64,000 nucleotides of DNA, from NCBI GenBank assembly GCA_964187785.1, contig OZ076409.1:49912001-49976000 (forward strand), in the 5' to 3' direction. A program made the position numbers and the translations under genes. How positions within the stretch are numbered: the first letter of the stretch is position 1; every line of letters starts with the position of its first letter. Under the pieces are notes generated by a model that made no database searches, was not told the DNA's origin, and was given only the letters and a program-made list of their open reading frames with translations. Source of the DNA: Amphiscolops sp. MND2022. Lineage: Eukaryota. Positions 1,570 through 64,000 of the stretch are shown here, piece by piece.

Positions 1570-3222
1570 ATCATCGTAAACCTTGACTAAGATTTACACC
1601 AAGCTGTGGAACTTTTGGACCACCTCGTCAGCAATTGGGACAAAGTCGTGAAACATCTCAAAGATAGCCGACGTATTCCCATCTATCGTTCCCATATGCA
1701 AGAGGTTTGTATTCATTGTTTCTTTTCATTTTCGTCTTCAGTACGCAATTCATCTTTTTATCTTATTTGACACATATGCTGCCAGTGTTTCGTTCTCGGT
1801 ACTGTTATAATTTCCTCTTTGGTTCGAAATCTTCTTTTTCTTTTCAGCCCTCTGGGATGGACGATCTTCTCATCGGGGACCAAGTTTTTGTGGCACGATT
1901 GTTCATAACACGCAATGTCCTGAGCCAATGTTAGTATCTTGTTGCTTTTTGTCTAGTCTTTTACTTGTGTGTTTGTTATTATTTCTTTTCTTTGAACATT
2001 TTATTGTTTTAATGGTGATCCCTTTGATGTTGAATGTGTATTTTTGATTTCCTTGTGTTTCAGACAATTCGACCTTCCATGAAGTACACACTGCAGTTGC
2101 CGGCGGGTTCCGTCTTTTCAACCAGTTCTGTGTATTTGTGTATACCCAATTACTTGCCATATTTCCAGCTTCGTTCCTGGGCGACATCTCAAATTGGATA
2201 CTTATCTTTCCCTAGATTTGAACGACGATACACTTCCTTACAAAACTGTGGACCAATTTTTACAAGATCCAGATTTCTCAGTTTTGCTATCACGGAGCAA
2301 GATCTCGACGCCTCGACGTTTTGTGGGGCAGGCCATTGCCTTTTACCGTCATTTCACAGAATTGTTGCTTGCTAGTGATCTCGCTTCGTCCACATTTGCT
2401 CGAGGGTTATCCTCTTTTGATGAAGCCGTGATAAAAGATGGTACAGAGGCGCAATATACTGACTTCATTCAGCTCCTGGCAAGCTACTTTGTTCATCAGA
2501 ATTGGATCGCTCCTCATGTTAAACTTGTGATCGTGAGTGAGTATTGTTCTCTTGTCACGAATTTCAGGGCGATTAAAGTCTCCAGTACCAAAGATTGGGT
2601 CAGCTTCTTTTCATGCTATTATGAGTTTCAAAACTGCCTCGAATTGTTCCGGCTGTTCAGGACTTGTTGTGAGACCCTACGTAGTCCTTGCAATCCTCCA
2701 ACGCCATTCATCGTTGCTGTTCCAAGCCTTAGGTCAGATGCTGAAGAACTTTCGTCGTGTGTTCGGAGTCTGCAGTGTTCCATTGCTTCAATCCAGAAAG
2801 TCGAAAGTCTGTTTCTATCCGCTGTTGCACTCCCTCGGGCATATGATTTACTTAGTCAGGGACCTGGGTTACTGCACAAGCGGAGGTTTTCAGTTGGTCA
2901 TTTGCTTTCCTCAACTTATTTCCGTAAAATTGGGATCATAAAGACTCTGGAGGCGAGTTTTTCAAAGAGTTCTGCAACTGAGGAGGGATTGTGGCTCGTC
3001 TCCGAAGACAAGGACCCAGCTAGTTCCAGTCGTAGCCCTGGTGTCGCAAGCACCCCAACTACTTGTTCCCCAGAGAAGGTCGCTACACCTTCAGTATCTA
3101 GTCCTGTTGTAGGACGACTTGTTGAGATTCCCTTCATGCCGGAACCTGTTATTGCTAGTTCGTCCAGCAAGAAGGTGGTAAAGAGAAACAGTCCTGGTAA
3201 ATTGCTACCTAAGAGCAATTAG
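1570..3222 (+). pseudogene. Spliced antisense accessory gene of Gypsy A (hAT-transposase-derived, C-terminal part)
   Basis: Exons ~1570-1704, ~1848-1929 and ~2064-3222 with ag/gt edges. Peptides AVELLDHLVSNWDKVVKHL, DQFLQDPDF and FRLFRTCCETLRSP align by eye with the ORFs at 11079-12657 and 61130-62430. Confidence 0.65.
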
Positions 3223-3368
3223 TTTGTTCATGTTGTCAACTTTTGAACTGTCAATTTTTATGTATTTACAGTTTTTGTTTTCATTTAGATTAGGAATTTT
3301 GCTGTGTTTATCAGTATTTGTGAGCAGCATGTGAAGATAGCGATTTGAGTCTTGTTAGTGTTCTGTTT

Positions 3369-6300
3369 TCAATATCTGTAATAATCCGAGAAGTTAGGAT
3401 TTGGGTTGGGTCGTAGATTGTATTTTTCACCACGTGTATTGGTAGGGGTTTTTTCTTTTTGAACCTCATCGTTTTCTTGATTTTCAGCTGTATTTTCTGG
3501 AAAAATTTCTGTATCAATAGTAGGGTTAGGTAGTAAGTCTTGCTGATTATCAATTGCATCAATTTCATTTTCTGCATTTTCGGTTGGGGTTTCTACATTA
3601 GGAACGGTAGTTTGTTCTACCGGGCCTCCCCCACTGTTTTTTGAAATTTCGAGGGAGGGTGGGCGGTTTATCGGTACATATTCTTGTATGTCATCTTGTT
3701 CGTTATCTGGGAGTTCTGTGTCAAATGGATCTGTACCAAAGTTTGTATCCCATGAATGGGCATACAGATCATCGTGTGTTACTACTATGTTGTCATCTTT
3801 TTGCCAATCTGTTTCTCTGACAAAATTATCGGCTAGTGGTGCGCTAGGTGTAAATTTCCTCAAACGAATTCGGTGTAACAGTTGTGTTTTGTTTGTCCCT
3901 AGCCTTCGTACAATGTAATTATTGTTAGGTAGGACTTTTTCGACTTTGTAGGGACCTATCCAACGGAATTCCTGAAACGGAATTTTTGTTGCTTGTGTGT
4001 CTGCCTTCGGGTTCAGTATGTAGCAATAGACTGTTGTATTAAGCAGTGCTGCTTTAGCCTTGCGGTCATAGTATGCTTTATATTTTAAGTATGACTGAAT
4101 GATATTCTTTTTGGTTTGGTCATTCAGTATCTCCATTCTGCGTTTTATTTCTTCTGCAATGTCAGTCTGTGGAGTATAACTTGGGTTCGGATTATAGCCT
4201 AGGTTGTAGTCTAGTATGTTATGTGGTATCCTGCCGTGGAAAACACGGGTGGGTTCACATCCTAAGCTGGCATGATACGTTGTGTTGAGGTTTAAGACAG
4301 CCAGTGGTAGGAATTTGTGCCAATTATTGCGAAATTCACCTGTAGCTGCTTTCAAATGTGTTTTTACTGTAGCTTGAGTGCGTTCTAGCATGCCGATTGT
4401 TTGTGCATGTTTTGTCGAAGCATGTTTTAGTTCAACTCCAAGCACTGCTGCTACTTCTCGGGTGATTTGTGAGTTGAATTGAGTGCCCATGTCAGTTATT
4501 ATGGTCGTTGGTAAATATGCGTGTTTGCACAAAATGTCCATAATGACTCTTGCGACAGCAGGGGCTGTGATTCGGGTTGTTGAATAAGCAAATAAGTATC
4601 TTGGGAAGACATCAATTGCTGTTATGATGTTATCAAACTATTTTTTTCTGTATCTTGGTGGGAGATTAGGTAAGATGTCCATCTGAAGAATATCTTCTGG
4701 ACCGAGGTCCCATTCTGAGCAATTTAGAAGTTCTGTTTTCAGTAAATCGTTATTGATTCTTTTGTTTTGAATGCACATTTGGCAGTTTTGAACCCAATTT
4801 TTGATGTGCTTTGCCAAGTAAGGGTAACAGTATTTCTGTCGCGCTTCCTGTATCATTTTTGTTATTCATGGGTGATTTGCATTGTGTCCATGCAATGCTT
4901 GTAGGAACTCCTCGAGAAGCTGTTTCGGTAAGAGTATTTCGTAGTGTCAGATTTGTCCAATATCATTGTAGTATTTTTGTGCAAGAATGTCTTGGCGGAT
5001 TTCGATGCGGGGTATGTTTTGTAGGTAATGTTGGTAGCGATTGTCTTGTGTGAACACTGATTCATCAAAAAGCTCACCCTCTATTTTTGCTCTGAGATTG
5101 CGAAGGACTGGGTCATTATTTTGTTCGAGTCGGATTTTTGCGTTGTCTCGAAAAAGTCCTTCCTGATAATCTATTGTTCCGGCAGTTGGTTTATGGAAAT
5201 TTTGTAATTTAGTTATTTCATTTCCCGGTTCATTATGTGTTCCTGTTTGTGCTTGATTTCTGATTTTGTCTTTTTGTTCCCAGAGTGTTTTTTCATCATT
5301 TTCATCGTCTGGGTGGACGTAAATTTGTTCTTCTTCAGCTATGCCAGAGGATTGGATATTAACCTCGAAAGCTTTTGATTGTATGTAGTTACGTAAATTC
5401 ATTTCTAGTTTTTCTGTCGGGTTGATTTCCGTTCGCGACAAGAAGTCTGCAGCCGTATTCATTGCTCCTGCTACATGTGCTCTGACAAAATTGTACTGCA
5501 GGACGTAGTCGCATGCGTTCCATAGTGCTGGGGGAATGATTTTTGTTTGGAAAAATCTGGTGACTGCTCGGTTGTCGGTAAAAACAATTACAGCAAAAGT
5601 ACTACCCCACATTAGGTGTCCAAATTCTGAAAATGCGAAGAAAATGGCTAAAAACTCTTTCGCATATATTGACATTTTTAATTGGGTTGGGTTGAAAGTT
5701 TTTGAGCCAAATGCAATTGGTGCGTATGTTTTGCGTTTTGATTGTAGTTTTTGTCGAGGGTCGTCTTCAATCATAATCGCATATCCTGCAGCTGTAAAAC
5801 TGGCATCTGACATGACGATTAGTTGTTTGTCTTTAGGTGGTTGTTTGAGTGCCATTTGGCATGATTGAAGGGGAACGTTGTTTAACTGTTCAAAATTGCT
5901 CGTGAGTTCGGTAGAAATGTGGAATTTGTTGGTTTCTTTCAGTAGTTTGAAGAAAGGGGTGAGTCGTTCCGAAAGGCGTGGTATACAATTTCTGTAATAA
6001 TTCAGAAAACCAATATATCTTTGAAGGCCTTTTTTGGATTTGGGGAATTTAAGTTTCGCTAAGAAATCTTTACCTTTGTCTACATGGGGAGAAACTCCTT
6101 CAGGTGTGATCGTTCTTCCCAGGAAGTCGACTTGTTTCACTCCAAAATGGCATTTTGACATTGAAAATTTCACTCCTGCGTTCCGTATACATTCAAAGAC
6201 TGCTCGGATGTTTATACACAGTTGTGTCACTGTGTTTGCTGCAATTCCGATGTCATCGACGTATTGGGCGCATTGGTCTGCTTTGATGAGGGTGTAGGGT

Positions 6301-7895
6301 GTCTAAGTATTCCCGTATGAAACTGGAGAATGCTGATAGTGATCGGCTAAGGCCTTGTGCTAATCGCCGATACGCAAAGGTTCGGCTAGCAAAGTTAAAG
6401 GCCAACATCTGAATTGATTGGTAATCTGCCATCTGAAGGCAGTGATACGCTTGTGAACAGTCAAGTTTACAGAATAATTTCTTTCTTGCCATATGTTGGG
6501 CTGCGTCGGAAAGTGTACTGACTGGGTGGTTGTTGTTTACGTAGTCTTGGAGATGAGATTATTTATTTTGCGCAAGTTGACTAAGAGTCGTAGTCGGCCA
6601 TTTGGTTTTCGTTGCGCAAAAATGGGACTTGCATATTTAGAGAAAGGTAGAGTTGTTATTATACCATACTTGTGAAGTAAGGCAAGTTCTACCGTGATGT
6701 CGTCTTTTAGGTTGATCGGTGTTGGAAGGTTCGGCTATATGCTGTTCGGACATCGTTTGGTGTAAGTTTGACTATGAATTCTCTATTTGTTCCTATGTCA
6801 AACCTGTGTCGGGCGAAATTATCGTGAAATTCAACCAGCAATTCTTCCACTTTCTGTCGTTCAAACAGTGTGAGTGTGGTGTCACTCCAGTCAAAGTTGT
6901 CAAGAAATGTTTTGCGTGAATTTTCGTCATCCTGTGGGTTAAGTTTTTCTAGTGTTTGAAGTTCCACTAGTTCGTCAAATATTCGTTTCTGAAAAGGTGT
7001 GTATGTTGTGGCGTCTCCAGGTTGTTCCGCTCTTGGAAACCAGTATTGTTCCGTTTTGTCTTCTTTGTTATTTACTTTTAGAAGTTCATTGAGGTACACA
7101 TCCGTAACTTCAGTATGTTGATGCATGATGAATGTTAGCATTGAAGGGTTGATTGGTTTAATATATTTCAACTGTGCTGGGGTTAAAACTCGAAAGTCGG
7201 CTAGATGTGTTTCTGTTGTGATTGTATAGGGTAGTTCTGAGAAATTGCAGATCTGGTATCATACTGCGTTATTGTTAACTGTACAGGCAGAGGAAGGATA
7301 CAAGGAAAAGTGTGTCATGATCTTCAAGGTGCGTAGATGGCGTTACTATGCCTGTTGCGTCATGATCAAGTTCGGCATTTTGCTTGCAATGAGCATCGTT
7401 TCACCCGGTTGCAGTGTGTATGTTGCTTCTGCAAGTAGTGGTGTTGATTGTCGTGTTGGAAGAGTGTGTTCTGGTTTCAATTGCATTGATAAATGCGGAA
7501 AAGTTAATATTCCTTGTCGTATGTCGAAAATGGCATTGTTCCTCTTTAAGAAACAAAGTCCAATTAGAGGATTCGGTAAGACTTTCATGACAATGAAGTT
7601 TTCTTTGAACATAAAATCTGCCACTTCAAATGTTAGGCAGACTGTTCCTATTGGCGTTTCCAATTGTCCGTTTGCTACCATTATTTGAAAAGTGGGTGCA
7701 GGACCTGTCTCGGGTGCAAGAAGTTTGATTTTATATAGGTCTTGTTCCGATATTACGCTCGTGAGAGCTACGGTATCGATTAGGCCGTTAAGTGTAAATT
7801 TTCGAAATCCATCGGAAAGTAATACATTTGGCGTGTGCTTTTCAGTGTCAGGTTGGTTGATAGAAGAAGCATTGGTATATCTGTTTCTTTATTAA
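3369..7895 (-). pseudogene. pol: Gypsy pol (protease, RT, RNase H, integrase), frameshifted
   Basis: LIDTVA protease-like motif ~7770, YVDD ~6255, RNase H SDAS/KEFLA/TDN, integrase CxxC, TDMGTQF, MLER and the WIGPY GPY/F motif. Confidence 0.92.
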
Positions 7896-8139
7896 TCGTA
7901 AGATGATTTTAAATTTCATCATCTTTGAGGGGTACCTTTTGTATTGATGCAGGTTTGGTTGGTATTTCAGATAAGTCTTGTGTTTGGAGAGGGTCAAAAT
8001 TGTTTTTCGGAAGAGGTTCTGGTAAGTTTTGTGGTGAGGTTTCGTGTTCAGATTCAAACAGATTTTCTGGTATTTTTTCGTTACTTATGTCAAGATGTGT
8101 GGTTATGTATCTGTCAGGGGCGTGTCTGTATATTTCGAA

Positions 8140-9915
8140 CAAAACGTCCTCTGATTCGTTTTGTTGAGTTCCTGGAGTATGAGAGTCGGTCTGTTGTGTG
8201 AAAGTGTTTGTTTTTATTGGGTAAGGAGTTGGATGCTGCCAGTCATCTTTCTCCTCTGATTTTGTGGGGTGTGGCTTTATTAAATTAAATCCTTCGATGA
8301 TGAAGGTTGTTGTCGGGGTGCTTTCGGGTTAATATATTTGTCGGAGTTTTTGTAATTTTCAATGAGTTTTTTCTGTGCTTCGGTTAGTGTTCATTTTGGG
8401 GGGCGATTTTCCATATTTGCTCCGAAGTAGCATGTTGGTTCCTCATGTCCTTGTGCGTTACAATGCGTACATCGTATTGCATCAGGGTCTTCTTCCAACT
8501 TACGACGTTTTGCTAGTTCAGCTTAGTCTGCTGCCTTGTGCCCTGTGTTTTTACAATAACGACATCGGTCATCTTGCAATGTATTGTTGGGCTCCGTTTT
8601 TGGTGTTTGTTGGTGCTTTTTTGTTGTTGCAGTTTTCTGCTGCGATGGTTTGTCTTCTGCTGGTTTGTTTATTACTGCCATTTGTGTTTTAACGACAGTG
8701 TCTTCTGATTCAAGTCCGTTTAATACCAACTCACGTTCGAGATGTCGGACTTTTGCTCGTATGTTCCATTGTCAAGATAGGCTTGATTAAAAGAACGTTT
8801 CAAATGTGGTGGCATTTTTGCATATGATAGACTTTCTATCATTTGTGATGCAATGTCACCAAAAGCTTTTTCGGCGCTTTTTTGTAATTCTTCTAAGAAG
8901 TCTGGTAGTTTCTGGCGTTCCGAGTCGAAAACCAAGCGATGAATTCTATCTTTTGCGGACGCACTAGATTCGGGCTTGACGTATTTTCTCCTGAGCACTA
9001 CCAGTATATCTTCAAGTGTGGTTGTTGGTGTTCGTGGAATATTTTTGAATTTTTTCAATGCTAATCCACGCAAATGCGCGTGAAAACGATTTATTTTCAA
9101 TTTCTCAGTTAATGCGTTGGTTGCATTCTGAGTGTTGTGTGGAAAAGATCTTCGAAATATTCGAATTTCCCATTCTTTTCCAATTTCCCAATGAAAGTGA
9201 GTGTATTTTTGGATGAAAGAGTGATGGTTGTGAATTACGACTCGCTAATTTCTCAATAGCCATTGCTATTTGGTTAACGGGGTCTTGCTGAATGGTGAGT
9301 GGTATTGTTTGAGCTTTGACGATGAAGTGGTTTGGTAACTCCTGTCACCATGTGATAATCCTCTCCTGTGCGGTCCTCATTTATGACCACAGAGTCATTT
9401 AGATCAATGTTTTGCATGCTCAAAGGTTGCATTGGCGTTCTAAGTTCGTTTAAATTAGATGGCCTGAAAGGATTTTCCTGTATTTCACATTCTTGATTTT
9501 CTGGCTCAGATGCGTTTTCTTCACCGTCCTCATTACTTGCATATTTTGAGGTTCCTGCTCTGGGGTTGTTTTGTTCTCGATATCGTCTGTTTGGTACGGA
9601 TTGTGTTCTTCTGTTATTTTTCATCTTTTCCAGTATTTTCTCTAGTTTTTTATCCATTTCTTTCCTTAAGTTTGCTACTTCTTTGTTCGTCTTATCTGAT
9701 ATTCTTTGAGTCCAAATTTGCATTTCATCTTCATTTTGTGTTCCACTGTCTAGAGCTATTTCTTCGTCCCTAACTGAACTAACATTTTCAAAGTTACTTA
9801 AAGTTTCGATAACAGTTTCATTACCTTGTGATGTCTCTATTTCGGATGTGCTCAACTCTCTCTCAAGTGAGGGTGATTGTCCTCGTCTAGATCTTTTATT
9901 TCTCTTGTTACCCAT
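8140..9915 (-). pseudogene. gag: Gypsy gag, frameshifted; starts inside the LTR
   Basis: MGNKRNKRSRR start at 9915, capsid-like segment 8720-9100, zinc knuckle CRYCKNTGH ~8545-8570. Confidence 0.75.
9337..9350 (-). promoter_or_regulatory. Primer-binding site (tRNA-Leu-like)
   Basis: TGGTGACAGGAGTT immediately follows the LTR end ...TATCACA on the minus strand; close to the TGGTGTCAGGAGT complement of the tRNA-Leu(CAG) 3' end. Confidence 0.7.
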
Positions 9916-10251
9916 TTTAGTTAGGTTAAAATGCTGTTTTGGAGAGAAGAATTTCAATTAGAATGATGTGCAAAGTAAAATTAGGTTGAAATGAATTTGA
10001 AGAAAATGCGCATTATGTTAACTTATCAAAGTTGAAACAAAGGTTGTGAGGATGAAAAAAAGGTCTGATTAGTCTGAAAGTTTTCTGTTGAATGGTTATT
10101 TTTGTGTTTTTACTCTCCTTTTTGATTTGGGCTAAATTTAGCAGCATGACAAGCATTTTTTAACGAATCATCATTACATCAATATTAAGTAATGGCTAAA
10201 AATAGCGATCCGTTATTTTCCAAAATTATATAAATAGATACTTACATCACA
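9351..10251 (-). repeat. 5' LTR of Gypsy A (outer end tentative)
   Basis: TGTGATA at 9351 abuts the PBS; candidate inverted end CATCACA at 10245-10251. No second LTR to confirm. Confidence 0.45.
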
Positions 10252-10679
10252 CAATTATCTATTAATAGCATCCTGCATGACGTCATATACTTCATTTGAT
10301 TGGTTACGTCTAGATCACCTTGAGCACTGATAAAAAGTGAATACTACATCATGATTCATTTGACTCCATACCAGTACATTACCGAAGTAACTAAGTGTGA
10401 ATACAAATGAGTCATATCTTCGAAGGTCATGTTCTAAATTTCAAAGGAATGAAATTATACTGCATTATGCTGCAAACGTTATGCAGAATCAATACCAGTT
10501 GCAGGTCACATGCTATTATGTATAACAGTATTATACTGCCGCATAATTTATTCATTTCACAAACTTCTGAACAAGGTAACATTAGGCATAAAGCGAATGA
10601 ACAACTATTACCATGTGCGTGTTTGTATGTAAATCAGCAGTAGTAAGGGTATTTACATAGCATCAATAGCAAATAAAAC

Positions 10680-13600
10680 TTAACACAACTGTTTTAAAAA
10701 ACATCGCAAAGAAATTAACATAACACGAGTTTTACGTGGTGACAATATTTTGAATGGGGACAGTAGACGGTTTGAAGCATTTGCCGTCAACGCTGCACCC
10801 CGGATCCAGCACATGCTCTCGGCGGTGACAACGAGAGACATGAACCTTAAAGAATTCACAAAAGCGCTCATAAAGACAGCATGTCCATCGCTACATATCC
10901 TACTCCAAGGATCAAAGCCCTCTTGCGCCATGGAATCTTGAGAATCGGAGATAGCAGACTAAACACACTCTATGGTGAGCATTGAAAAAGTGCCCCCTGC
11001 TTGTAATTGGGCGCTGCAACATAACTTTGAATGCCACGGATACAAGATTTAACAACTACAGATGGCACACTAGATCCGTCAAATCAACCTCCTCATGGGG
11101 ATATTGCAAAAAGGGCCCCGGATTATCAGGCAGCACAACTTGAGAACACGGCATAAAATTTTCTGCGTCACGAAAACATTATCAGCCAGTAAATGTGTGA
11201 TAACATCGGCGATATCTTCAGACTGACAACCACTACCCAAATGACGAGCACGTACGTCCACAACGAATGTGGCAAACTCGTCCACAGCTGCTTTCGACTT
11301 CACAGAGGACACAACAGCACCCGAATCAATCTGCCAAACAGGGTAAACACACAGTGGTCGTCCCTTTCCAGGAGCACCGCTGGATAAAACAACACACGCC
11401 CTGCAAAAACTCGGATGACACCAATAAATGCGACAATATAACGTCGCCGAGACGGTCAATAAATCGTCGACATCGACTGTGGAAATTATTGAATTCACTG
11501 GTTTTCATCTGTCGCAAAGTAGCACCAAACTCGTACTACGAATGAAATCAGCATCTCCAACCTTCGCAAAACTGGCAATCTTCTTAGCATCCATATAATC
11601 TTCCCATGAATTCAGATCAAGCAGAGAAGATGCTTTCAGGTTAGCTGACAATACTCGAATTGGCAGAATTCTACGTAACAGTGGAAAGCGTAGTCGGCAC
11701 GTGTCGAACTCTGCTTCTTAAAGGAACACGAATCTAAACACCATCACTATCTAGCACCGATAATAGAAATCGTAGAAAAAAAGCAAACGAATACTAACGC
11801 AACTCCCTGACGTGCACGAAGAGTCCCAATCTCAACTCGTTAGTATTCTCCGAGAACACGAGCCAGTCGATGCCACGCATCTACAAGTTAAAACAATGAT
11901 TCAAAGATCACAACAATGAACACAATATGAGAGAAAAAAACCTCAACTACAACTGAAAACGAAATGACGACGTTCTACTTAAAACATACCCTCCAATTTC
12001 AACCTGAAGAAAGGAATGCACTTACCCTATCAGGCTGGGTCTGGATGTGAGGAGGGCCAGTATAACGCACGTTTTCACGAACCGAATCCCACACAGAAAT
12101 CAGTTCCGTTACAACCGCACAAATTCGGCAAAAGAGACCTGTACAGCAATTACACTGCGTCGGAGGTTCACAATGTCCTCCATCCAGGGCTTTTGGAGGG
12201 CACCACGCAATTCCACCATAAGGAAGTCGATAGTCGACGTCATTTCCAACATGCCAAAAGTTTCCTGGTGTGCTTCGCGATACACTTCGTCTGTGAAATC
12301 CCGGCAAACAACAAAGCGACGTCCATCAACACGATTATCACTCAGAATTCGATGCAAGGTCGGACTACCACCGTTTATTGAAAGTGGCCACTGGCAGGAC
12401 GCAAGACTATTGATGATGCGTGACAAACAAAACAACTCAGCACTCAGCAAATGTGACTTGCGGCCCGAGTGACTCCACACACGCGCAGACGTCCTGAAGA
12501 TATACATCGTCCTCTGTCCGCAAAATCCAATAAAGTTCATCTCCACGCTCTTCATAGAAGTCGCTGTGGTCTTTAAAGGTCGCAACCCGTGCAAACAGAG
12601 ATCGCAACATCCGAGGAAATATGGCACGACAGAGCAACGCCTAAAACAGAAACTCAATGTATCGAATGATTACTGACGACAAGACACACCACTATATGAA
12701 ACAAGACACCATTCAACGAGATCTACATAATACATACGAAACAATAGGAAGAGGAAAGCAAAAGAAACAACTTACCAAGGATTCAGCTCGTCTTCAATTC
12801 ATTTTATACAGAGAGGTTGCCGGGGCCCAATGTTGCGCGGAAGCAACCCCACAATCTACGCAAAAAATGGTAGCTTCCACCACAACGACACAGTTCAAGC
12901 AGACAGTTCACCATCGTCATCAAAGGAACTGAAGAATGTACGCGCGTACAAGCCGGCAAAAGCTCCTTTTGAAACCTGAAACCCTCGGATTTTCCTTTCC
13001 AGGGGCGATTCATGTAGCGTTTCACTTGCGCTTCGGACAGCTCCACAGGGTCCATCAAACAATTGAAAATCGGCAGGTTGTTCTGCACACAATACGTCAC
13101 GTCTAAATCCCAATAGCGTTTCCCAAAGAAATGGCGAGTAAACTCCGCTGCTCTTTGTGACTCCATTGAGACGTCACGATGACCAATCATGCAATGGAAA
13201 AACTTATCCTAACCAGTGCTGGAACCACTCACAAATAACTCGAAAACGGGTTGGTTAGCCACCATATCACGGCGGAGTCGATTCTGCGAACTGTACACCC
13301 GTTTCCGGCCAGAAAAAGACCTTTTAAAGTTGTTTCCACACAATTCACCAACTTCTCGAATCCTACAATCACAACACGTAAACTGTTGACTCGACATTGA
13401 TGACAAGAATGGGAACATCTAAAATACAACTCCGAAACGGCCCAACAATTGTCAATGAATATGTTTACAAATGAGAAGAAAGAGAACGTACTTCCAACAA
13501 AGGGCTCTAAAGATCGACCCTCCAATTCAGAGACTTCAATTGCTTCTCTCAGTCTATCAGATTGCTGATCACAACCAGAAGGTGAAGACTTTGGCAGATC

Positions 13601-14303
13601 AACAGCCTCATCATCTGTGCTGCCGAACGTAAACCCTCTGGGCCTCGGAAGCCCATCAGAAGCCGATGGTCGTGGATGACTCGACAAAGCCTGCACACAA
13701 GTTCCTTGCACAGTCGGGGACACCACACGAACTATCAAACACAAACCATACAAATTACCATCATAACTCACCCGCGAACAGCAGTTACATGAAGATAAAC
13801 ATGGAAAAAAGAGAGAAGGGAAGAAAATAAACACAATCTCTCACCTCGTTTAACTATTAGAGAAGACGCTTGACTCCCAAAAGTTTGCACAAACTCAGGC
13901 AAGAAAGTGCTAAAACGGGGCGAAGTCATGGTTTGGCTGTCAAGTATCTCTGCTGATTGTCTTGGCTGCTCTCCTTCGCTCTGCTCAGGAGGTGGGATAG
14001 ATGCTCACCTCCGTGAGCCTCAGCAACAACCGCAGAAGATGGGGCACTAGAGGCAGCCGCCAAAGGAGCTTCAGAGTCCCCCTCACAAGAAGCAGAAGAA
14101 AGTTTACCCTCAGGAAGAACGAAAGAAGCAGCAGCAGCAGACACGGGAGTAACATCAGGTATGACTGCCGTAGACAAAGAAAGGCCACCAAGTGGCTCCA
14201 CGGAAGTATCAGAAAGATCTGCTGGAAGTGTAGTAACTTCAGGATTATTCGAAGTGACGACAGAAGAAAAAACTGGTCCAGACACTAAAATAACATTCCC
14301 CAA
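10680..14303 (-). pseudogene. Multi-exon antisense accessory gene of element B (zinc finger plus hAT-like body)
   Basis: FHCMIGHRDVSMES..RH zinc-finger remnant ~13200, LISVWDSVR, FATFVVDVR and LCRVLKLCC. GTAAG/GTATG donors at ~12775, ~12025 and ~11990. Stops and frameshifts present. Confidence 0.7.
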
Positions 14304-15587: not shown

Positions 15588-15713
15588 ATGTGCCCCATTT
15601 TCCGTTCCAGCGTGGTCAACTGTAGAGCGGTTCGACCCATGACAGTGGCCCTGTCACAGTCCACTCCCGGACTGCCTTGTGGGTGGAGACGACTAAGAAT
15701 TGGGAGAGACAAT

Positions 15714-47046: not shown

Positions 47047-47072
47047 TTATTAGGTAAAATTAATGAATATAT

Positions 47073-51437: not shown

Positions 51438-52191
51438 TCATTGATCCTGAAATTCAGCCAAACTGACTTTTCACAGTGAGAAGTGTTTTTGAAAGATGTG
51501 AAAAGTCCACTTAGCTGGAAATAAAATAAACGGAATGGTAGAGCAGTAACTTAAAACATGCATGAATTTAAAACATTCATCAAAATTAGTAGCATTTATC
51601 GGATTTATATACTGAATTTACTTGGTGTCAAATGAGCACTTTTCGCAAGCCTTAAGCAATTGCGCTAAACACCTCAATACTTATATTTTGCGACAAAAGC
51701 TTGCGACAAATGCTCATTTGACACCAAACTAATTTTGATAAAGCGTCCCCTCCGCTTCGTCTACAAAACTCACCGTTTTGCGGTTTTTGACAGTGCGACT
51801 TGATTTTGAAAAAAGAATTTCTCAGGAAATTTTTCACCATTTTGGATTTTTGGCCTCTCAAGTTGAGGAAAGAATTCTTAAAATTGAGGTTCCTAGTTTT
51901 GGGTTCTTGTTTGTCATTTCGGACTTTTTTGCCGTTGGTTTTTTACCAAACACTCTCCCGGGCGGGAATTTGTATCCTACTAGTGTCAAATTAGAGTATC
52001 TGTTCACAATGAACTAAAATAGTAACATATTTTGAGGTAAGAACTAATTCGTTGAAATACGCACTGTCACGTCTTGTTGACGTTTAATTTGACTTTTTTC
52101 AAGTCAGAAAATACGAGTTGTGTTAAGTTATACCAGAAAGAGTGCGAGACTTGACTCTGCCCTCGGCCGAACTTTTATATATTCAATTCAA

Positions 52192-52561
52192 GAAGGTATT
52201 TGTGTTTTTGAACATTCATTGTTATCTCTGTCATAACAATAAACGGAAAGCTGTCATAATAAAATATGGAACGCTTTTTTTCCAATTTGCAAAAAAAATC
52301 GACACTGATCAAAATCAAGACGCACCATCTTGCAACTTGGCAAAACGTGAAATCATATGTATGAAACGTCAAAAGCCCGAATGACGCGGGTTTTTTGTCG
52401 CTATCGGCATAAAATCTGAAAACGATAATATTATTATTTAAATTGACAAGATATATCAAGATATTGACAAGAAAAAAAGCGTTCCGTATTTTGTTATGAC
52501 AGCTTTCCGTTTATTGTCATGACAGAGATAACAATGAATGTTCAAAAACACACATACCTTC
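52192..52561. mobile_element. MITE with ~90 bp TIRs
   Basis: 52192-52281 is the inverted copy of ~52472-52561. Confidence 0.8.
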
Positions 52562-55500
52562 CCGAATGATATTGCGTCTTGTGAGGACGAACGAGGGCAA
52601 GAGAAATACTGTTCTCGGCAATCTACGTGCATTTTTGCATGAAATAACATCATGGAGTTTTTCAGATTTGAAAATCTATTTTCTGACAAACAGTTGAGGC
52701 TGGTAAGTGTCTGAATCGATTACGTTTTGAGTAGTATGTTTTTCGTCAGACTACAACCCTGACACTGGTTCGTCCCGTTCAGAACATTCAGAACACGTTC
52801 AGTCTAAAATCTGAAAGAATTCAAAATGTCTCCTCTGTTGTCACTTCAATTTTGTTTCATTTTTTGAACGAAACAAGAACATATTAAAAGGTCTCTTTTT
52901 GGTTTTTTGGCACAGTGACTTTTGAAAAAACTTTTTTTTCGCATATCATTCTACACTTTAATTAGAACACTTTTCTTTTGAGCTGTAATATCAAGCTAGC
53001 GGCGTACATATTAGAGCCGGGACAATGCCTACGTTGCCTTGATCGGAGACCATGGTGTTACAACTGTAGACATTTTTTTCTTCCGAAACGGTCTCCAAGG
53101 GGGACTTTTTGTAACGTCAAGGAGGCTCCTGATTTAGGGCTCCGTGGCGCCATGCCGGCATATTCAAAGTCCGAACATTCTCCCAGAAGCATATAAAAAC
53201 GGATCCTCAGGATTCTAGCGGGTGTTCCCTGCGACTTCCTACATACTGCCGAGGTTCAAAAAGGCATATCTGATTCCTTTCTTGGGTAGTTTTCAGAACC
53301 ATGAAAGTTATCAGAAGTTTTTGGAATTGGTAGTCGAAAACGATATAACACGGAACGATTTTCTTTAAGGAAACATTTTTATATCTTGTTAGATTGCTTT
53401 GTTACGTTAAATGTTAAACTTCTGATTTCAGAATTTTAAATGATAAATGTTAAACTTCTGAGGTGATTTCAGAATTCTTGAGTTCTATGATTTTCAAGTG
53501 CTGGGTACTTCTGAGGGAAATTCTGATGAATGAGTGAATAGAAGAAATATGAAATTATAAACGGATTTTCACGGGTTGAAACTTACCTAGGATGCCTTTG
53601 ATTTCCATCTCGCAAAAAATCAGGTGGAAATTTGGGTTACTGAGTCTCACAGTGTTTCCCACGATTCCCTTATTGTCGCATTCGAAGGTCACCCATTGGC
53701 CAGTTGGTGAAGATTCAGTGGTTGCGCATTGAGAGCATAAAAATTCTCCGGAACAAATTTGGACCTCAATTCCAGCACATCCTGTACAATCGAATTTTAC
53801 TACTTTAAAGTATCAAACGTTTGTTGCATGCTTCAACCAAGAGCCCATAAAACTAAATATAATTTATTTGATTTCATCATTATATAATTTTGAAGTATAT
53901 AATTTCAAAAACATATACTTTATATATAACCACTATAATTTTTGTAAACAGAGATAAACGGAATTTCTTCGATTTCACCATCAATCAATTTCCCATTGAG
54001 GCCTAGAATTTTGAAAGACTTAGAGCAATCTTAAACAAGAGACATTTGTTCGAAAATTTTTTCATGTCTCCAAAGGTTACCCCCTTCAATTTTGTTGATA
54101 TTCTGCAACAAATTGGATGTTAAAAACTCCTTTCAAGTTTTTCGCCATTATGAGACTGTTTCAAATTCTCATTTTTCGTCTGCAATTAGATTTTCTCAAT
54201 GTATAACCACCAATTTTTCCATTAGAATTCAAATTTTTGACGTAAGTTGCGTTTCACTAGAGAGGAGGTCGATGTTGGAAAATTTCGCGCTACATCCGAA
54301 GTAAGTAAACTGTGTTTTTCTAAGGAGAAGGTAGAAGTTCGAAAGAGAGATCCAATGTTACCCAGCACCTTCGAGGTGTTTGATGAGCACGAACTGCGAA
54401 CCATTGCGGACAAAAGCGTCAAATCTTCTTTCCATATGATGAGTTCCTTTCTTATTCAAGCAGTCCGAGGAACCCACTGACAAGTGCCGATCCCGAGGTA
54501 AACCCAAACGGACAGCTCCCCCATCTGGGGATTCGTCTTTATTTAACAGAGGAGGGATTGTAGATGACGGCCACTCCTCCGACGGGTTTACCGATGTATC
54601 CAGGCAGACAATGCATCCGGGCTAACCAGACAGACGAAGACTTATAAGCCTATATGCAGCTTGACCTACAGTCATTCAGCGGATGTAATTTTTGCTTCCA
54701 CATCCACCGCTGAGATTCCAGCCGGTTTCGAATGTCTTTTAGTTCGGGAGACCACATAGGTGTTTCCAGCAAGTCCTGGAAGTGGGCATAGTAGCATAGA
54801 CACCCCCTATCTAGTTTACTCCCTGCAAGCAGAAATGTCAAAACGCCCACCAGTCCACCCAAGAAACGCGGACGTCTGATGTGTCGACTGGAGAAGGTGA
54901 TGAATGAAGCCTATTTTAAGGGCATCAAGTTGCCCAAGACCTTCTTTGCCAGGCACTAGAACCCTAGGCATAAAAAGCACAAACTTTATTGCCAAATCTG
55001 CAAACCGAATATATCGATCTGAGGCATTACCACGCAGTTTCGCAGAAATCATTGCCCATCTGCTCGCAGTCGTCTCCAAGAGTCTTAATCTCATCAGTGA
55101 GTAAGTGAGTGTCCTTCTAGTCTGCTCCAAAGCCTTGATAAATCTACCCTCTTTAAATATGGATTTCAGTATCTCTTTCGCTTTGATGACCTTTCTTTGC
55201 CTTCAATTATGCACCAACGTTTCGTACCTGTCATTGGGGCAAATGATTTTCCCTCACAACTGATTTTTCGGACCGTTTTCGTGAACGGGTGCTTTGATCA
55301 TCATTGGACGCAGCCGACTCCTGAAGCTGTGAGGGTTAGTTGTTGTTCGTTGTTATTGTTAGCGTATTCTATCGCAAATTGTTTTACCATAATCATTTAT
55401 CCTCTAGGCCATAACAGCATGCAACGTGGAATTGAGGCATATTTCAACTATCTGCACTGAGTTAGTGACCAACTGGGACGCCATCCTTAACACCCTGAGA

Positions 55501-56969: not shown

Positions 56970-57641
56970 TTGGTCGGCGCTTTTCCATTAAGGGAAAAAT
57001 GCCCGACTATAGCAGTGACCTTTTTTAGTCGGCGCGTTTTCCTTTTAAGGAAAAATGCCCGACTATAGCAGTGACCTTTTTTTTCTTCAGACTACAATCC
57101 TCACACTGATCGGTCCACTTTTTACAATTCTGCGCAGAGCACCTGAGGCCAAGTCCGCCCAAGGCAAACTTTACTCCAAAGGGTCCCCCTTTCATTTTTT
57201 ACTTTTTCAAGGAAACATACAAAACCGGACTGCCCAAAGGGTCCCCCTTTGGATTTTTTTTCGGCACTGTGCGACTTTTTTTCGAAAATTTTTTAATCTC
57301 CCCAAAGGGTCCCCCTTTCATTTTTTACTTTTTTAACGTAACCTACAAAACCGGACGTGCCTCAAGGGTCCCCCATTTGGATTTTTTTCGGAACTGTGCG
57401 ACTTTTTTTTCGAAAATTTTTTAATGTCCCCAAAGGGTCCCCCCTTTGAGTTTTTTGATATTTTGCAACGGAATGTTTGTTAATAAATCCAGAAGGGTCC
57501 CCCCTTTTACATTTTTTGGCACTATGCGACTTCTTTTGAAAGAAATTTTTTTTTCAAAAATTTCAATTTTTTCCAAAAAAAAGTGTTTTACGCTTTTTGA
57601 GCCTTAGATATGGCGCCGAATTTAGACGTTCTCGTCTTGTT
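56970..57641 (+). mobile_element. HINE/DINE-1-like non-autonomous element
   Basis: 5' GTCGGCG...CCCGAC stem (duplicated), AAGGGTCCCCC internal repeats, 3' CGCCGA subTIR plus AGACG-ttct-CGTCT hairpin and TT end. Confidence 0.6.
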
Positions 57642-57699
57642 TCCTTATGTTTGTACTCATTTGCATTTGTTTTGAAGTCTGTTTGTACTTTTTCGTTAT

Positions 57700-58340
57700 A
57701 TAGTCAGTCTAGTACCATCAAGTTACAATCGTAAAAGTGGAATGGGGATTTCAAACTTACATATCTGACTAATATCTGTGTTCGTCAGTATAATTGGGAG
57801 TGGAGTTATTTCGAAAATTGTAGTTCCCTTTTCTCGGGCTAGATCTTTCGTTCGTTTTTTCCTGATATTTCGACGTGTGTGATGATGGTGTTTTTTTTCA
57901 GTATCAATGCATTCTTTTGCTTTGACGTGATTTGTTTTTCTGCCGAAATAGACGTTTCGTCTTTTATAGAAGACTGCATTTTATTTTGTTTCGTCTTGTC
58001 GATCAATAATTGTATCCTTCCGCAAAGTTAGTTGTTGACAAAAAACATTTTTGAGGTAAATTCCAAGTTTATGATCTGAGACGTTGTAGGGAATGCGTCC
58101 AAGAAAGACCTTGTTTGGCTCGCATCCAATAATAAAATGGTATGCAGTATTATATTTGAGCATTGTTATTAGCAAGATTTACGCCACTGACACCCGTATT
58201 CTGAGGCTGTTTTCAAGTTTGTTTTGAGAGAATTATTTGTCCTTTCGAGTCGAGTTGGCCAATTGTTTGCGGATGTTTCGTAGTAACACATTCGAGCGTT
58301 ATTTCCAAAGTTCGTGTAATTTCCGTTAATTTCGTTGACG
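57700..58340 (-). pseudogene. Inverted Gypsy integrase fragment
   Basis: LERTNNSLK and GCEPNKVFLGRIPYNV on the minus strand. Confidence 0.75.
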
Positions 58341-58344
58341 TAAA

Positions 58345-60340
58345 TGCTGATACGCAAAATACTGCGTCTGAATTCCTGTCAAGAATCGACCTTAACCCCA
58401 AAACAAGAGTCGAGCTGAAAATCAGAGACGATATCACAATTCGACCGATACAAGTAAACTTACAGTCAACAGACGTTGCAGACTAGGAACAACTTTCTTC
58501 CTTCCAGACGAAACAATCGAAACTGAAGAAAACATCCTCTAGCAAAAAGAGTAAGCCAGACAAAACGCGCACGATGAAGAGACAGGAAAAAAATTGACTA
58601 TAAAAGAGACAACCCCAATCTCAATGAACAAGGCATCGTACACTTTTGGAGCTATTAAGGAACGCACGTATAAGAGTTGAACACGATTCAAACCTAGTCT
58701 TCAATGCAATCAAAAGAAAACTGATATGTGAAAAATATGACAAACATCACATACAAACTGATCCGACGGCAAAGTGTCTCTTAGTCCACGAAAACACACT
58801 AATAGTCAAAGACGGCATATCGATGAGGAAATATTACGGGAAATGCGGACAAGTCACTCATCATCAAATACTAATTCCTGATCACCTCATAACGGAAATC
58901 CTAAGATCAATTCTCGGACAAATGGGAAAATACACAGGAATCACAAAAACGATACAGGAATGCAGATCAAATTACTACTATCCCCGACTAGCCAAACGAA
59001 TCAAACAATGTGAATTACAATGCGAAGATTGTATCAAATACAAAAAAAAAAACAAAAACTGCCAAATCAGACCAAAGATGATTAACAACACGGAACACGT
59101 GCTGGAATCAGAAGACTCCGTAGAGATCGATATACTACCAAACCTACCAAATTCTGCAAGGTACCAAAACATCGTAACGATGATTGATGTATTTTCATGC
59201 TATCTGTTCGCATACCCAACGCCGAATGTCACAGCAAAAACAATTGGACGATGCATTGTCGATGTCATGACAAGGCATGCATATTTGCCAACACTAATCC
59301 TCTAAGATAAAGGCTCCTAGTTCCGATCAGAAGTTGTCACGCAAATAACGCAGACACTAGAAATTCAAATCAGCCACGCGTCTACAAATCAGTCCATATT
59401 GCAGTCATGAACTATAATACGACATATCATGAGACTCTAGGCTGCGAACCATCCACAGTGTTCCATGGACGAATACCCTACAACGTCCTTGATCTAAAAT
59501 TGAGCATCAAACCAAAGTGGAAAACTACGCCTAATTACGATATAGCAGAACAACTACAAAAACAAATTGTTGAAGTGCGCGCGACAGTAAAAGACAACAT
59601 CATGTTGTCTTATCTCAAATACAAAAAATTTTACAACTGCAAAGCGTCTGCAGCCCCGCTTAAAATAAATGGCTACTGCTACATCCTCAATCCGAAAGGC
59701 GACAACCAGTCGACAAATTTCGCATTTCAAGATTGCATCTGGATGGGACCGTATATAGTAAAAAAAGGTTCTATCAAACAATAATTAAACGATACGGAAA
59801 ATTGGCACCAAATATACACAAACACTTCACAGAAAACGTATTTGCCCGTATGTGCCAGAACAACGTATACCCGACGTCACAGTACGAGCAAATGAATACC
59901 TCCCAGACCCAGATATCAGAGTGTCGCACAACGAATGGTATGCAGCTTCTTGGAAAATGGATTTCGTGAAACAAATAGACAAACACGAAACGTCAAAAAT
60001 TGCAAACAATAACAAACAAGCTGTGACACAAGAAATAGAAAACATGAATGATGAAAAAACGGGGCAAACAGAGATAGAAAATCAAAGCGAAGATACGAAG
60101 GACGTGACACCTTCGTCACCAGATTTTTCAAGTCTAACCACGGACGTGGGGGACAATCCACATAGTCCCCCATCCATTGAAAGTCCACCAAATTCAAGTC
60201 CACCTATTCACCCAAATTCACAGCCTACAGTCATTGGATACAACCCAAGAAAAACAGCAAAGTACAACTTGAGAACTAATCCTAAACCTAACACTAATCC
60301 TGACTTCAGACGACTCGACGCTATGACTACCACTCACTAA
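58345..60340 (+). pseudogene. pol: Gypsy pol C-terminus (integrase)
   Basis: CEDC, IDILP, IDVFS, GCEPSTVFHGRIPY, WMGPY and KYNLRTNPKPN. Confidence 0.9.
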
Positions 60341-60699: not shown

Positions 60700-63600
60700 C
60701 TGCTCCGCCTCTTTCTTGTTTTTTCCTCCAACTCACTTTCGAGATTCTGATGAAGACTTCATAGCTGCACGAGCATTCTTCTTTCGGTCAAGCAAAGACA
60801 TCACACTGAGGTGAGAAAACGGATCACTAGGCCCTGCAGCAGCATGCTTCTCACTGACAACACACCCAGAAGGACCAGGCGAACTCGCAGTCTCTGAACC
60901 AGTCGAAGCATTAGCAGCACTTAACATTTAATCCCGACGAGTCGTTTTGGAGAGTCCTTTACTGAAAGACCTCTTCTTGTCGGCCAAATACTTCTTGAAT
61001 GAGGTGGTATAGCGCGACATAAAGCCATCCCTATTGCCCAGACATATACTCGACCGAGGATCGAACGCTGCAATGGTCATAAATTCTCCTGCACCAGCTA
61101 CAGCATCCCGCACACCTTCCATTGTCGCCTCAGAACAACGCACCTTGCCGATAAAGAAAGGATACCACGTAGCTCTGCACACAATGCAAGGCAGAAATAA
61201 CGCACATCTTTGCAACAGCACAACCGGATAACTCAATTGAGACGTCAGGCAAGCGTAAAGATGGCCTACTCAGGACCAAAACACAAAGTTTCAGCACACG
61301 ACACAAACTTCTGCGAGAGACAAAACTATAATCCTCTAGCAAATAATGCACCACGTCGGGGATAGACTCAGCACATTTTCCGGATGCTCGATGTCGAATT
61401 CGGGCGTCCACAACAATAGTCGTGAATACTTCAGAACTCATCCCGGACTCTTCAGCTGACAAATTGCCACTACGCTCCAACACACGCAATAACTTCGCAA
61501 ACAGCTGGAACACGTATCGATCGTCGCCCTCTAACAACAGCTCAGGGCAAAATGCATAAACACTCTGCAGCAAGTCAGCACGTACTAAGGTTAATCCCAA
61601 AATAGCATCGATAAGACAATCAACAAATTTGCGACTCTGGTTTAGAAATTCGGGCGCCTCACTAGATCGGCTTTGACGAAGCTCAGCTCCAAAACTGTCA
61701 TGTATCAAGAAATCATCAGTGCCCAACTTGGCGATTGTCGCCACCTTGTCAACACTCATGTAGGAGTCCCGGTCGTTCATATCTGGCAATGCAGCTAACT
61801 TCCGGCTACCAGAAAGCAGACAGAACAAGAACTGGCCAAGCTCCAATAAACAATGGAACCCATAATCTGGTCGCGATGCCCGCTGTTTTTTGAATGCGCA
61901 GTGATCTAAACAAGAATCACTAATAAACAAGAAGTACCACAAACGCTGTCCACCCAATGAGCATACAACCATACTTGCACTCAACCCGTAGCATTAGATA
62001 ATTAACGTACCCTACCAGTCGAACCAGAGTGACTCTGAATATGCGGTGAAGCAGTGAAACGAACAAAGTCTCGCACAAAGTCCCACACTGAGATCAGCTC
62101 GCGAACGACACCTCGGAGGGCACCAAAGCTGACGTGGCCAGCGACGACGCAGCGACAAAACTGCGGAGTGTCCTCAATCCAAAGCTGTTGGAGTGCACTC
62201 TTCAAGCGAAGCATCAGAAACTCCCACCATTGTGACGACTTCCAACATGCCAGAAACCTTTTCGTGAGCCTGACGATAAAATTCCAAAAAGGTATTGGCT
62301 GTGAATTCTTGGCAGAACACAAACTGACTGGGAACCAGACTACAGACACCGCGAGATAGCCCAGCAAACTCAGCAGTGGGTACTTGCTGCCCCAGTGGTT
62401 CAACCCAAACACAGATTTCGAGCAGAGCATTGTCCTCCCATGTCTTCAGTATGCAGAACTGACCAGCTGAGTGGTCCTCGAAACAGACTGAATACTGTCC
62501 AAATCGAGGAAATCGTGAAAATACAACCCGAAGAATACGAGGGTACAAAGCGCGACACAACGACTCCAACAAACAATAAAAACTGAAGAAAGAAGGAGAA
62601 GGAAAAGAGGACGTTGGGAAAGAAAGGAACAAGACGGGAACGTCTCAAGTCGGCGCTAAATCGAAGGCTCAAAAAGCGCAAAACATTTTTTTGGAAAAAA
62701 CTTGAATTTTTCGAAAAAAAATCTTTCGGAAAATGTCGCACAGTGCCAAAAAATGTAAAAGGGGGACCCTTTTTGATTTATAAACACGCATTCTGTAGCA
62801 AAAAAAAACAAAAAACTCAAAGGGGGGACCCTTTGGGGACATTAAAAAAATTTCGAAAAAAAGTCTCACAGCGCCGAAAAAAAATCGAAAGGAGGGGGGG
62901 AAACTTTAGTCCCGTCCGGGCTCGTATGTAACGTTTAAAAAGTAAATGAATGCGCTCCCCGTTTGCCTTTAGCGGTCCAGTAGTTTAGTACTTATTTAGT
63001 AGTTGAACGTTAATTTTAACGTTCGTCGCTTCGAGTCTGTCTTAAAAAAAACGAGTGACTGTAATAGTCGGGCTTTTTTCTTAAGAAAAACGCCGACCAA
63101 AAACGACTATTAATCAACGGAATCAAAATAACATACTAACCAGAGTTTCAGTCCGATCCAAATTCAACGGGTACAAGGGGTTCTCACGACCCAAGATGGC
63201 TCGAAAACACCCCCACATTTTGCGCAGAAGGAGTTAATTGCCTCGGACCTGCAAAAACTCCACAATATTATTCACCATAGTCAGAATCGGCACAGTAGAA
63301 TCAGGCAGGAAGGTAGTAAGTCTTAAGGGAAACTGAACCCGTCTGATTTATCCTTGAAGGGTTTTGCAAGGTAGTCCTCCCTCTGAGAGTCACTCAGTTC
63401 CATTGGGTCCATTAGCTTGTTGAATACGGGCAACCCACAGTGAACCCTGCATGAAACGTCTGCACCCCAATGACCGACGCTCCCAAAATGGCGACCAAAC
63501 TCCCGTGGGCCCCGCGACTCCATTGAAACATCTCGATGACAGATAGTGCAGAAGAGCCTAGTCTACACCCTAGCCATCAGAGCTTCAAAGCCTATAACGA

Positions 63601-64000
63601 ATATAACACTTAGAGTTAAATACTATGCGATGACGATACCGCCCCTTCCTCAACAAAAAACCAACGCTATTTGACCCAAATGACAACATTCTTAACAACA
63701 AAACTACTTACCAGCAAACAAATGGATCAACGATCCCAACAGACAATCTGGTTGCAGAATGCCTCACAGCAGCTTCGCTCTGAGACGTCGCAGAGGCGCC
63801 ACCAGCTTGCACATCTTCCACTTCATGCACAGCATCATCGCCGCTATCGAGGATCTTGTCATATGCGCCAGTCTGCCGACGCTTTTCCCCAGCAACATCC
63901 TCTTCTGGACTGTGGAACGACACTAAAACAGCAAACAAATCAAATACACAAAAGAAAACCTCTTTCTCTCGCAATCAAGGATATCAACCACCAAGCAAAT
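60700..64000 (-). pseudogene. Multi-exon antisense accessory gene of element C
   Basis: LFCTICHRDVSMES..RHFGSVGHW zinc finger ~63470-63555, LISVWDFVR, DDFLIHDSF and LCRVLKLC; GT donors at ~63711, ~63139 and ~62009. Confidence 0.7.
62628..63100 (-). mobile_element. HINE/DINE-1-like element, same family as 56970-57641, inside an intron of the antisense gene
   Basis: Inverted homology including the terminal hairpins and GGGGGACCCT repeats. Confidence 0.65.

Follow-up and report, generated by a model that had tools for sequence, protein, structure and literature searches.

A putatively spliced antisense gene, possibly of hAT transposase descent, carried by a Ty3/Gypsy retrotransposon clade of Amphiscolops sp.

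In a 64,000-nucleotide stretch of the Amphiscolops sp. MND2022 genome (GenBank assembly GCA_964187785.1, contig OZ076409.1, forward-strand positions 49,912,001 to 49,976,000; hereafter, the window), three Ty3/Gypsy retroelements, which we call A, B, and C, are each accompanied by a multi-exon gene on the strand opposite to their own coding sequences. This arrangement raises the question of whether the gene belongs to the retrotransposon or is an independent DNA transposon, and of what protein it might encode and from where that protein might have come. The original prediction, made from the letters of the window, was that these elements carry a spliced antisense gene derived from a hAT-like transposase. 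Our analysis of the window and of the whole genome provides good support for the structure of element and antisense gene being real, and for the gene being an integral antisense cargo of the Gypsy elements and not a free DNA transposon.

Much of the evidence is positional. When we searched the genome with the last exons of three subfamilies of the gene, scored matches numbered 150, 148, and 131, drawn from 6,212, 4,324, and 6,567 first-look candidates, respectively (these numbers are not copy numbers). A convergent integrase was found within 1.5 kb of the gene at 58 of 60, 30 of 30, and 15 of 15 loci, i.e., at 103 of 105 overall, and in the reverse test 28 of the 30 best integrase matches of element A were found to carry the antisense gene; the linkage counts come from best-scoring matches and are therefore biased toward well-preserved copies. 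Of 19 loci inspected over 20 kb each, 18 show the gene followed by pol on the other strand, and the remaining one has long terminal repeats (LTRs) around the gene and no pol; most of the LTR pairs in this set are 98-100% identical. As for exceptions to the linkage, L004 is an LTR-gene-LTR arrangement without pol, and in L038, L284, and L309 the similarity to the element ends just past the end of the gene or of the integrase. We regard it as virtually certain that the gene is linked to this Gypsy clade.

Members of the clade have a layout of ~16 kb in the order LTR, gag, pol, antisense gene, small sense open reading frame (ORF), and LTR, with the Ty3/Gypsy pol order of protease, reverse transcriptase, RNase H, and integrase. 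Their LTRs have the form TGTCAC...TAACA, the primer-binding site starts with TGG, and 5-bp target duplications are present in all seven young C-type copies examined as well as in elements A and B. The gag frame starts inside the LTR (window 9277-9957, and likewise in L089 and L068), by ~200 codons in A-type elements, and because it starts so far inside the LTR, the primer site lies within the gag frame. Within other Gypsy families, 13 of 14 loci chosen by integrase finger family lack the antisense gene. Locus L270 has a third, strongly diverged version of the gene (5661-7831) behind a clade integrase end that is 44% identical to that of element A, with integrase end and gene apparently joined to the pol of another family. 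The original prediction had named terminal inverted repeats (TIRs) of the gene's own, together with independence from Gypsy pol, as grounds for abandoning it; besides the linkage described above, only short, unshared inverted matches were seen in the two young copies scanned, 8-bp duplications at the cassette edges not having been searched for separately.

The three elements in the window are broken copies of this one clade. Together with 20 kb of flanking sequence on the left and 10 kb on the right, they could be resolved into the following features:

168-1121, no strand assigned: LTR from a 5.4-kb, unrelated LTR element that sits within an intron of gene A; its twin LTR left of the window is 99.4% identical, with the 5-bp duplication GGCTT.
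1570-3222, plus strand: 3' part of antisense gene A, with exons 1570-1704, 1848-1929, and 2064-3222, one stop, and one frameshift.
3372-9957, minus strand: gag-pol of element A (protease, reverse transcriptase, RNase H, integrase), split over several frames, with gag starting within the LTR.
9352-10830, minus strand: element A's 5' LTR, ~1.48 kb, sharing 92-95% identity with the element's own 3' LTR left of the window.
10836-14530, minus strand: antisense gene B (C-type), decayed, its last exon cut by element A; its tail and the gag-pol of element B lie left of the window.
14563-14822, no strand assigned: repeats having a core of the TGACGTCA type, in the gap that separates the start of antisense gene B from the sense ORF of element B; putative bidirectional promoter.
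15030-15750, plus strand: small acidic sense ORF of element B, entering the 3' LTR; its N-terminal SUMO-interaction-like motif is intact in relatives and degenerate here.
15652-16242, plus strand: 3' LTR of element B (TGTCAC...TAACA), internally deleted; it has the duplication CAAAG in common with B's 5' LTR left of the window.
56970-57650 (approximate), no strand assigned: second copy of the foldback insertion at 62620-63105.
58316-60337, plus strand: pol remnant of element C (end of the RNase H region and integrase), its 5' part missing here.
60700-64000, minus strand: antisense gene C, with the last exon from ~61905, the middle exon at ~62010-62566, and the finger exon at ~63140-63590; it runs on right of the window and is followed there by the sense ORF and LTR.
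62620-63105, no strand assigned: foldback insertion, similar to a miniature inverted-repeat transposable element, in the intron after the finger exon of gene C.

Six-frame translation and Pfam searches identified the gag-pol of element A and the integrase remnant of element C, whose integrase ORFs end at 3372 and 60337, respectively. Both the integrase ends and the exons of the opposite-strand gene could be read in these two elements, in agreement with the claim that a multi-exon gene converges on the integrase stop. Its limits, though, had to be redrawn. The segment 1570-3222 is indeed coding, but it is only the 3' third of gene A, the finger and middle exons of which lie left of the window, past the nested 5.4-kb element. 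The gene reported in element B at 10680-14303 is there as well, but it starts near 14530, and the sequence 9352-10830 is the 5' LTR of element A, which sits in the last exon of gene B with its 5-bp target duplication ACGAG at 10831-10835. The tail, pol, gag, and 5' LTR of element B follow to the left of element A, and CAAAG is found at both ends of B. Gene C is present where it had been placed (60700-64000), but it is interrupted by the foldback insertion and extends beyond the window. All three gene copies are broken by stops, frameshifts, or insertions.

Despite this decay, the three copies can be assigned to one gene family, as originally proposed. Genes B and C are collinear exon by exon at ~32-65% amino acid identity. 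Direct BLAST comparison of raw window segments gave no match for A-B or A-C, and the homology of gene A was established through intact relatives, with the finger, middle, and last exons showing 18-26% identity. The shared motifs L(I/V)SxWDxV, LxR(V/L)xxxC, and D.FL...F were found as quoted; of the zinc finger said to be common to B and C, the copy in C is intact, but that in B has decayed to C-x2-G ... H-x5-Y. The earlier reading had overlooked the small sense ORF (15030-15750 in B), which runs away from the antisense gene into the 3' LTR.

Does the gene encode a protein, and is that protein assembled by splicing? Gene models were built for one young copy of each major type, and both have GT-AG introns and a single terminal stop: the C-type model comprises 7 exons and 1,102 amino acids, and the A-type model 5 exons and 1,149 amino acids. 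For the C type, 9 of 9 copies retain both splice sites of introns 3-6, donors as well as acceptors; introns 1-2 show 6 mismatches in 36 sites. For the A type, 10 of 10 copies retain the intron that follows the finger exon, and introns 3-4 are kept in the 7 closer copies, with 5 of 12 sites differing in the three most distant ones, for which the DNA alignment is poor. Internal exons mostly conserve their length modulo 3; introns do not. In addition, there is a case of precise intron loss: 1 of the 10 A-type copies reads through the position of the last intron, as does the database ORF P0009, whereas the others keep the intron there (window A, 1930-2063). Removal of this intron leaves the same peptide, which is the pattern expected of loss through a spliced cDNA. 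Collectively, the conserved GT-AG sites and the precise intron loss suggest that the antisense gene is spliced.

The ratio of nonsynonymous to synonymous substitution rates (dN/dS), a check that had been recommended for this gene, was 0.02-0.15 in pairs with measurable dS, with dS being saturated in most A-type pairs, and 142 of the 150 C-type matches contain no stop within the match. Purifying selection on the coding sequence is well supported by these values, and we are highly confident that it is the predicted spliced protein that is under selection. As a separate observation, intron 1 (window 14270-14420; L067:4170-4300) is more conserved than the next exon in both clades, which suggests a cis-element on one of the two strands.

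We next consider how the gene relates to the backbone that carries it. The C and A clades come apart both in an integrase tree and in a last-exon tree (30 rows, with stop-bearing and partially covered copies excluded; the gene tree was a quick one, and the bootstrap of the integrase tree was unsettled), which dates the gene to their split or earlier. Within the clades, near-identical backbones carry gene versions that are old and very unlike each other. For instance, L090 and L092 have LTRs that are 98-99% identical and integrases that are 98% identical (dS 0.03), but their last exons are only 69% identical, with silent sites saturated. In sliding windows along this pair, an identity of ~90-100% drops to 31-73% in the stretch bounded by the promoter region and the stop codon and recovers beyond it, and four other pairs show a drop of the same shape. 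A faster rate of protein change was considered as the cause and ruled out, given saturated silent sites beside near-identical LTRs. This pattern points to gene versions being exchanged between copies like a cassette, probably by template switching during reverse transcription.

The sense ORF is ~230-380 amino acids long, lies between the start of the antisense gene and the 3' LTR, ends inside the LTR, and is acidic, Pro/Ser-rich, and divergent (besides the copy in B, L067:2871-3566, L086:7321-8457, and L098:7853-8902). It has no Pfam match. A hydrophobic core with a serine/acidic tail was found at its N-terminus in 15 of 19 loci (our script counted 16, but the match in L079 lies elsewhere in the ORF) and not once in 69,796 background residues, with LIDISSSSEEE, LINISSDSGEE, and VIDISSGSGDE as examples from both major clades. 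This motif resembles an acidic, serine-flanked interaction motif for SUMO (small ubiquitin-like modifier). SUMO acts in silencing guided by PIWI-interacting RNAs. SUMO-interacting motifs are loosely defined and are often flanked by CK2 sites, according to the accessible part of PMC12751080. Between the two genes, C-type elements contain TGACGTCA-type repeats and L095/L098 contain a different repeat, and we infer that this region may be an internal two-way promoter.

With regard to the protein itself, the copies share an order of low-complexity N-terminus, C-x2-C-x16-H-x5-H finger, helical linker, middle domain, helical last domain, and basic tail. The finger was present in 5 of 5 copies checked, and similar C-x2-C-x12-17-H-x5-H fingers occur in 6 of 6 transposases of one hAT group from the same genome. 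P0273, a natural database ORF, holds the three blocks in the same order. As a side observation, the database proteins P0273, P0271, P0247, P0263, and P0218 are only 23-34% identical to the loci of this genome, and 825 representatives match the last-exon profile at E<=0.001; the gene family may extend to other organisms. A search for longer proteins found none, and no relative of P0273 was found in metagenome contigs.

Structures were predicted for the middle and last exons, each modelled separately. The middle exon model, with a poor predicted local distance difference test score (pLDDT 59), runs helix, three strands, helix, strand, helix, strand, i.e., a predicted five-strand RNase H-like fold, and its weak Foldseek matches are mostly integrases and other RNase H-like folds. 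In VIA, it matched pelota, eL38, actin-like, and integrase folds at Z 5-7, and it aligned with residues 152-380 of the hAT transposase Hermes at Z 5.1 (root mean square deviation [rmsd] 3.6 over 105 residues). For the last exon (pLDDT 79), Hermes residues 365-609 ranked 1 of 48,161 chains in the wide VIA search (Z 5.0, rmsd 7.7, 168 residues). These two matches carry weight because they are collinear and because the hAT hypothesis had been named beforehand. Presumably, the last exon also resembles the C-terminal half of a further hAT group, one that has TRWLSL-type motifs and lies outside the set compared here. Taking the domain order, the predicted RNase H-like fold, and the two Hermes matches together, we consider a hAT origin plausible, albeit weakly shown: descent from some DDE transposase is probable, and descent from a hAT transposase in particular is somewhat favored. 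Whatever its source, the protein appears to lack catalytic residues, as had been noted from the window: at the three sites expected for the hAT D, D, and E (assigned from predicted strands and hAT motifs), the fraction of D plus E is at most 0.33, such that no acidic residue is conserved, and neither an RW nor a CxxH motif is conserved in the gene copies. This part of the inference is well supported.

How might such a protein serve the element? The gene is carried inside LTR-bounded elements with 5-bp duplications and converges on the integrase. From integrated copies, the putative two-way promoter would drive the antisense gene in one direction and the small acidic ORF in the other, and the antisense RNA would be spliced to encode a protein of 1,100-1,150 amino acids; the introns would survive because the packaged RNA is the other strand. 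The predicted product, comprising a C2H2 finger, helical linker, RNase H-like core, helical insertion, hAT-like C-terminal part, and basic low-complexity tail, could use its finger and transposase scaffold to bind DNA while leaving it uncut. Versions of the cassette would move between backbones by template switching among co-packaged RNAs, and conflict with the host may maintain their diversity. Most speculatively, the protein and the product of the SUMO-motif ORF might keep the chromatin of the element open. Taken as a whole, the reading of the gene as encoding a likely dead hAT-type transposase that serves in the nucleus as a DNA-binding accessory factor and counters silencing by the host is, in our judgment, evenly balanced, and the anti-silencing role by itself is tentative. 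A fuller version, in which a retrotransposon disarmed an intron-bearing hAT transposase and paired it, via a two-way promoter, with a SUMO-binding partner as a counter-silencing module, with a host arms race maintaining many ancient exchangeable versions as a balanced polymorphism within a selfish element, is doubtful.

Several results weigh against this reading. Hermes ranked 45 for the middle exon in one VIA search and fell outside the top 50 in another, and both Hermes Z-scores lie below VIA's own trust level and are tied with unrelated folds. Foldseek, the other arm of the recommended structural check, returned nothing at E<=0.001 from its PDB and viral libraries for either exon model, and re-comparison of the last exon with Foldseek's 217 chains gave no Z>=5. 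No hAT match was obtained in Pfam (including PF05699, PF04937, and PF14291) or in PDB profile searches. Hidden Markov model (HMM) and hhalign comparisons with four hAT groups of this genome were likewise negative, in a setting where hhalign linked the hAT groups to each other at only 36-99.7% probability. Our search of this genome for a donor recovered many hATs with PF05699 and PF04937, none of which matched the gene by HMM or hhalign, and no matches with PF14291 or PF18658. Thus, the hAT claim has domain order, predicted fold, and two collinear Hermes matches at Z ~5 in its favor, but no link by sequence, profile, or Foldseek. ESM Atlas leads to RasGAP (0.89) and HEPN-like (0.90) folds pointed away from hAT; they were rejected as low-recognition. 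Moreover, A-type elements other than L095/L098 show no clear promoter repeats, and a test for co-variation of gene and LTR found none. The gene does not track the LTR, which leaves a family-specific LTR-binding code unsupported and weakens the simplest idea of a family-specific LTR transactivator.

These negative results bear directly on the possibility that the gene is not derived from a transposase at all but is a captured host or viral gene combining a zinc finger with an RNase H- or actin-like fold, in which case the Hermes matches would be due to chance. Every sequence and profile test against hAT was negative, and pelota, actin-like, and ribosomal eL38 folds score as high as or higher than Hermes for the middle exon. 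Yet two separate exons correspond to successive segments of Hermes in the expected order, one of them at the top of all chains searched and under a hypothesis stated in advance, and the finger spacing resembles that of hAT transposases from the same genome, so we consider such a capture quite unlikely. The many intact hAT families of this genome might suggest that the gene is merely a neutral passenger or a hAT transposon that is nested here but still independent; this is next to impossible in view of its fixed position and orientation in 103 of 105 loci, the lack of shared TIRs in both young copies scanned, the lost catalytic residues, and strong purifying selection.

Other explanations accept the dead transposase but give it a different task. 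It could act as an integration tether or a cofactor of the preintegration complex, its versions corresponding to different target preferences. The predicted DNA-binding architecture and basic tail would suit this role, the cassette varies independently of integrase and LTR, and element A sits within the antisense gene of a related element; the seven target duplications read, however, share no fixed sequence, and a single nested case is anecdotal in a genome full of such elements. We therefore deem a tether unlikely. Deep, selected versions on a shared backbone would also fit frequency-dependent selection on a repressor or immunity factor that limits expression of its own element or excludes rivals (other Gypsy versions or hAT transposons), with rare versions being favored. 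An LTR-gene-LTR derivative without pol persists (L077/L078), and antisense viral genes with regulatory roles are cited in the part of PMC11963269 available to us. Against this stand the abundance and youth of the clade (near-identical LTR pairs and thousands of first-look candidates), which make self-repression or exclusion very unlikely as the main function. The preferred reading is still that of an accessory factor acting against silencing.

The remainder of the window is rich in other mobile elements. The nested 5.4-kb LTR element (window 168-1121; L061:5730-10000) has one 913-amino-acid frame and no detectable pol, and it is probably non-autonomous; a related solo LTR is found in L076. At 23064-32571 on the plus strand, there is a Helitron/Helentron-like element with two small ORFs, a tandem-duplicated ubiquitin C-terminal hydrolase (PF00443), Rep (PF14214), a PIF1 helicase, and a downstream ORF without a Pfam match. 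A decayed Polinton/Maverick-like element occupies ~35035-50092, with TIRs of ~650 nucleotides that are 90% complementary and frames judged by eye to encode DNA polymerase B, capsid, integrase, and ATPase. Short foldback elements lie at 52186-52567, 56970-57650, and 62620-63105, the last in the intron of gene C. Elsewhere in the genome, other abundant Gypsy families have large sense ORFs after pol with signal-peptide-like starts (L279:4876-6900, L280:4891-7167, L275:6435-8567, and L274:1553-3370), which are possibly env-like.

The closest known parallel to the antisense gene comes from plants. In the sections of PMC11963269 and PMC7264820 available to us, Retand/Tat Gypsy elements carry antisense TRP28 ORFs (Transposase_28, PF04195) between pol and the 3' LTR, such as maize Grande gene23 and those of rice RIRE2, and their origin and function are described as open; for Grande, an upstream promoter of its own and a nuclear product are reported, a regulatory role has been proposed, and the origin is debated. 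In the present clade, too, nearly all copies have an antisense coding region in the interval from pol to the 3' LTR. Unlike TRP28, however, it gave no PF04195 match (Pfam, E<=1), and it differs from the Retand/Tat genes in its ~1,100 amino acids, 4-6 predicted introns, finger, and predicted RNase H-like core. TRP28 has no similarity outside transposable elements (PMC11963269, accessible part); those same sections of PMC11963269 and PMC7264820 describe neither a hAT origin nor cassette swapping for it, and those of PMC7264820 do not mention introns. We found no published account of a spliced, transposase-derived antisense gene in a Gypsy element, in a search that did not cover most subscription journals or Repbase Reports.

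Accessory proteins of other transposable elements offer a functional analogy. As far as the consulted part of PMC13547354 goes, VANC of MuDR/VANDAL and TnpA of En/Spm are anti-silencing or accessory proteins from plant DNA transposons, and the ASY2-like protein of ATLANTYS is listed among element-encoded accessory proteins. Like these, the gene studied here is a fast-evolving accessory gene beside conserved core enzymes; unlike these, which derive from host chromatin proteins (PMC13547354), its donor appears to have been another transposon class, and its anti-silencing role is putative. Human and simian T-lymphotropic viruses (HTLV/STLV) also place a regulatory gene on the antisense strand of an LTR element's 3' half (PMC11963269 and PMC7264820, in part), a likeness for which we claim no homology; the HTLV antisense promoter is located in the 3' LTR (PMC7264820, same sections), whereas the likely promoter here is internal and common to the sense ORF. 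Planarian Burro elements are likewise large Gypsy elements with extra domains, but their cargo is mostly in-frame within one polyprotein, and the portion of PMC6431247 consulted describes no antisense spliced gene.

Finally, hAT transposases such as Hermes (PDB 8edg/8sjd) and their domesticated inactive derivatives share with the predicted protein, by weak structure matches, the order of finger, RNase H-like core, helical insertion, and C-terminal part. The antisense protein departs from them in having no conserved D, D, and E, no RW, no CxxH, and no TIRs seen, and in being borne by a retrotransposon and not by the host genome. Antisense placement appears to have kept the introns of the gene. 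Since the clade offers numerous young copies, a candidate partner, and a range of gene versions on almost one and the same backbone, the origin and function of the gene are testable by comparison of versions. Transposase domestication is normally a story about hosts; in this case, the domesticator appears to be a mobile element, and the enzyme to come from a different class of element.

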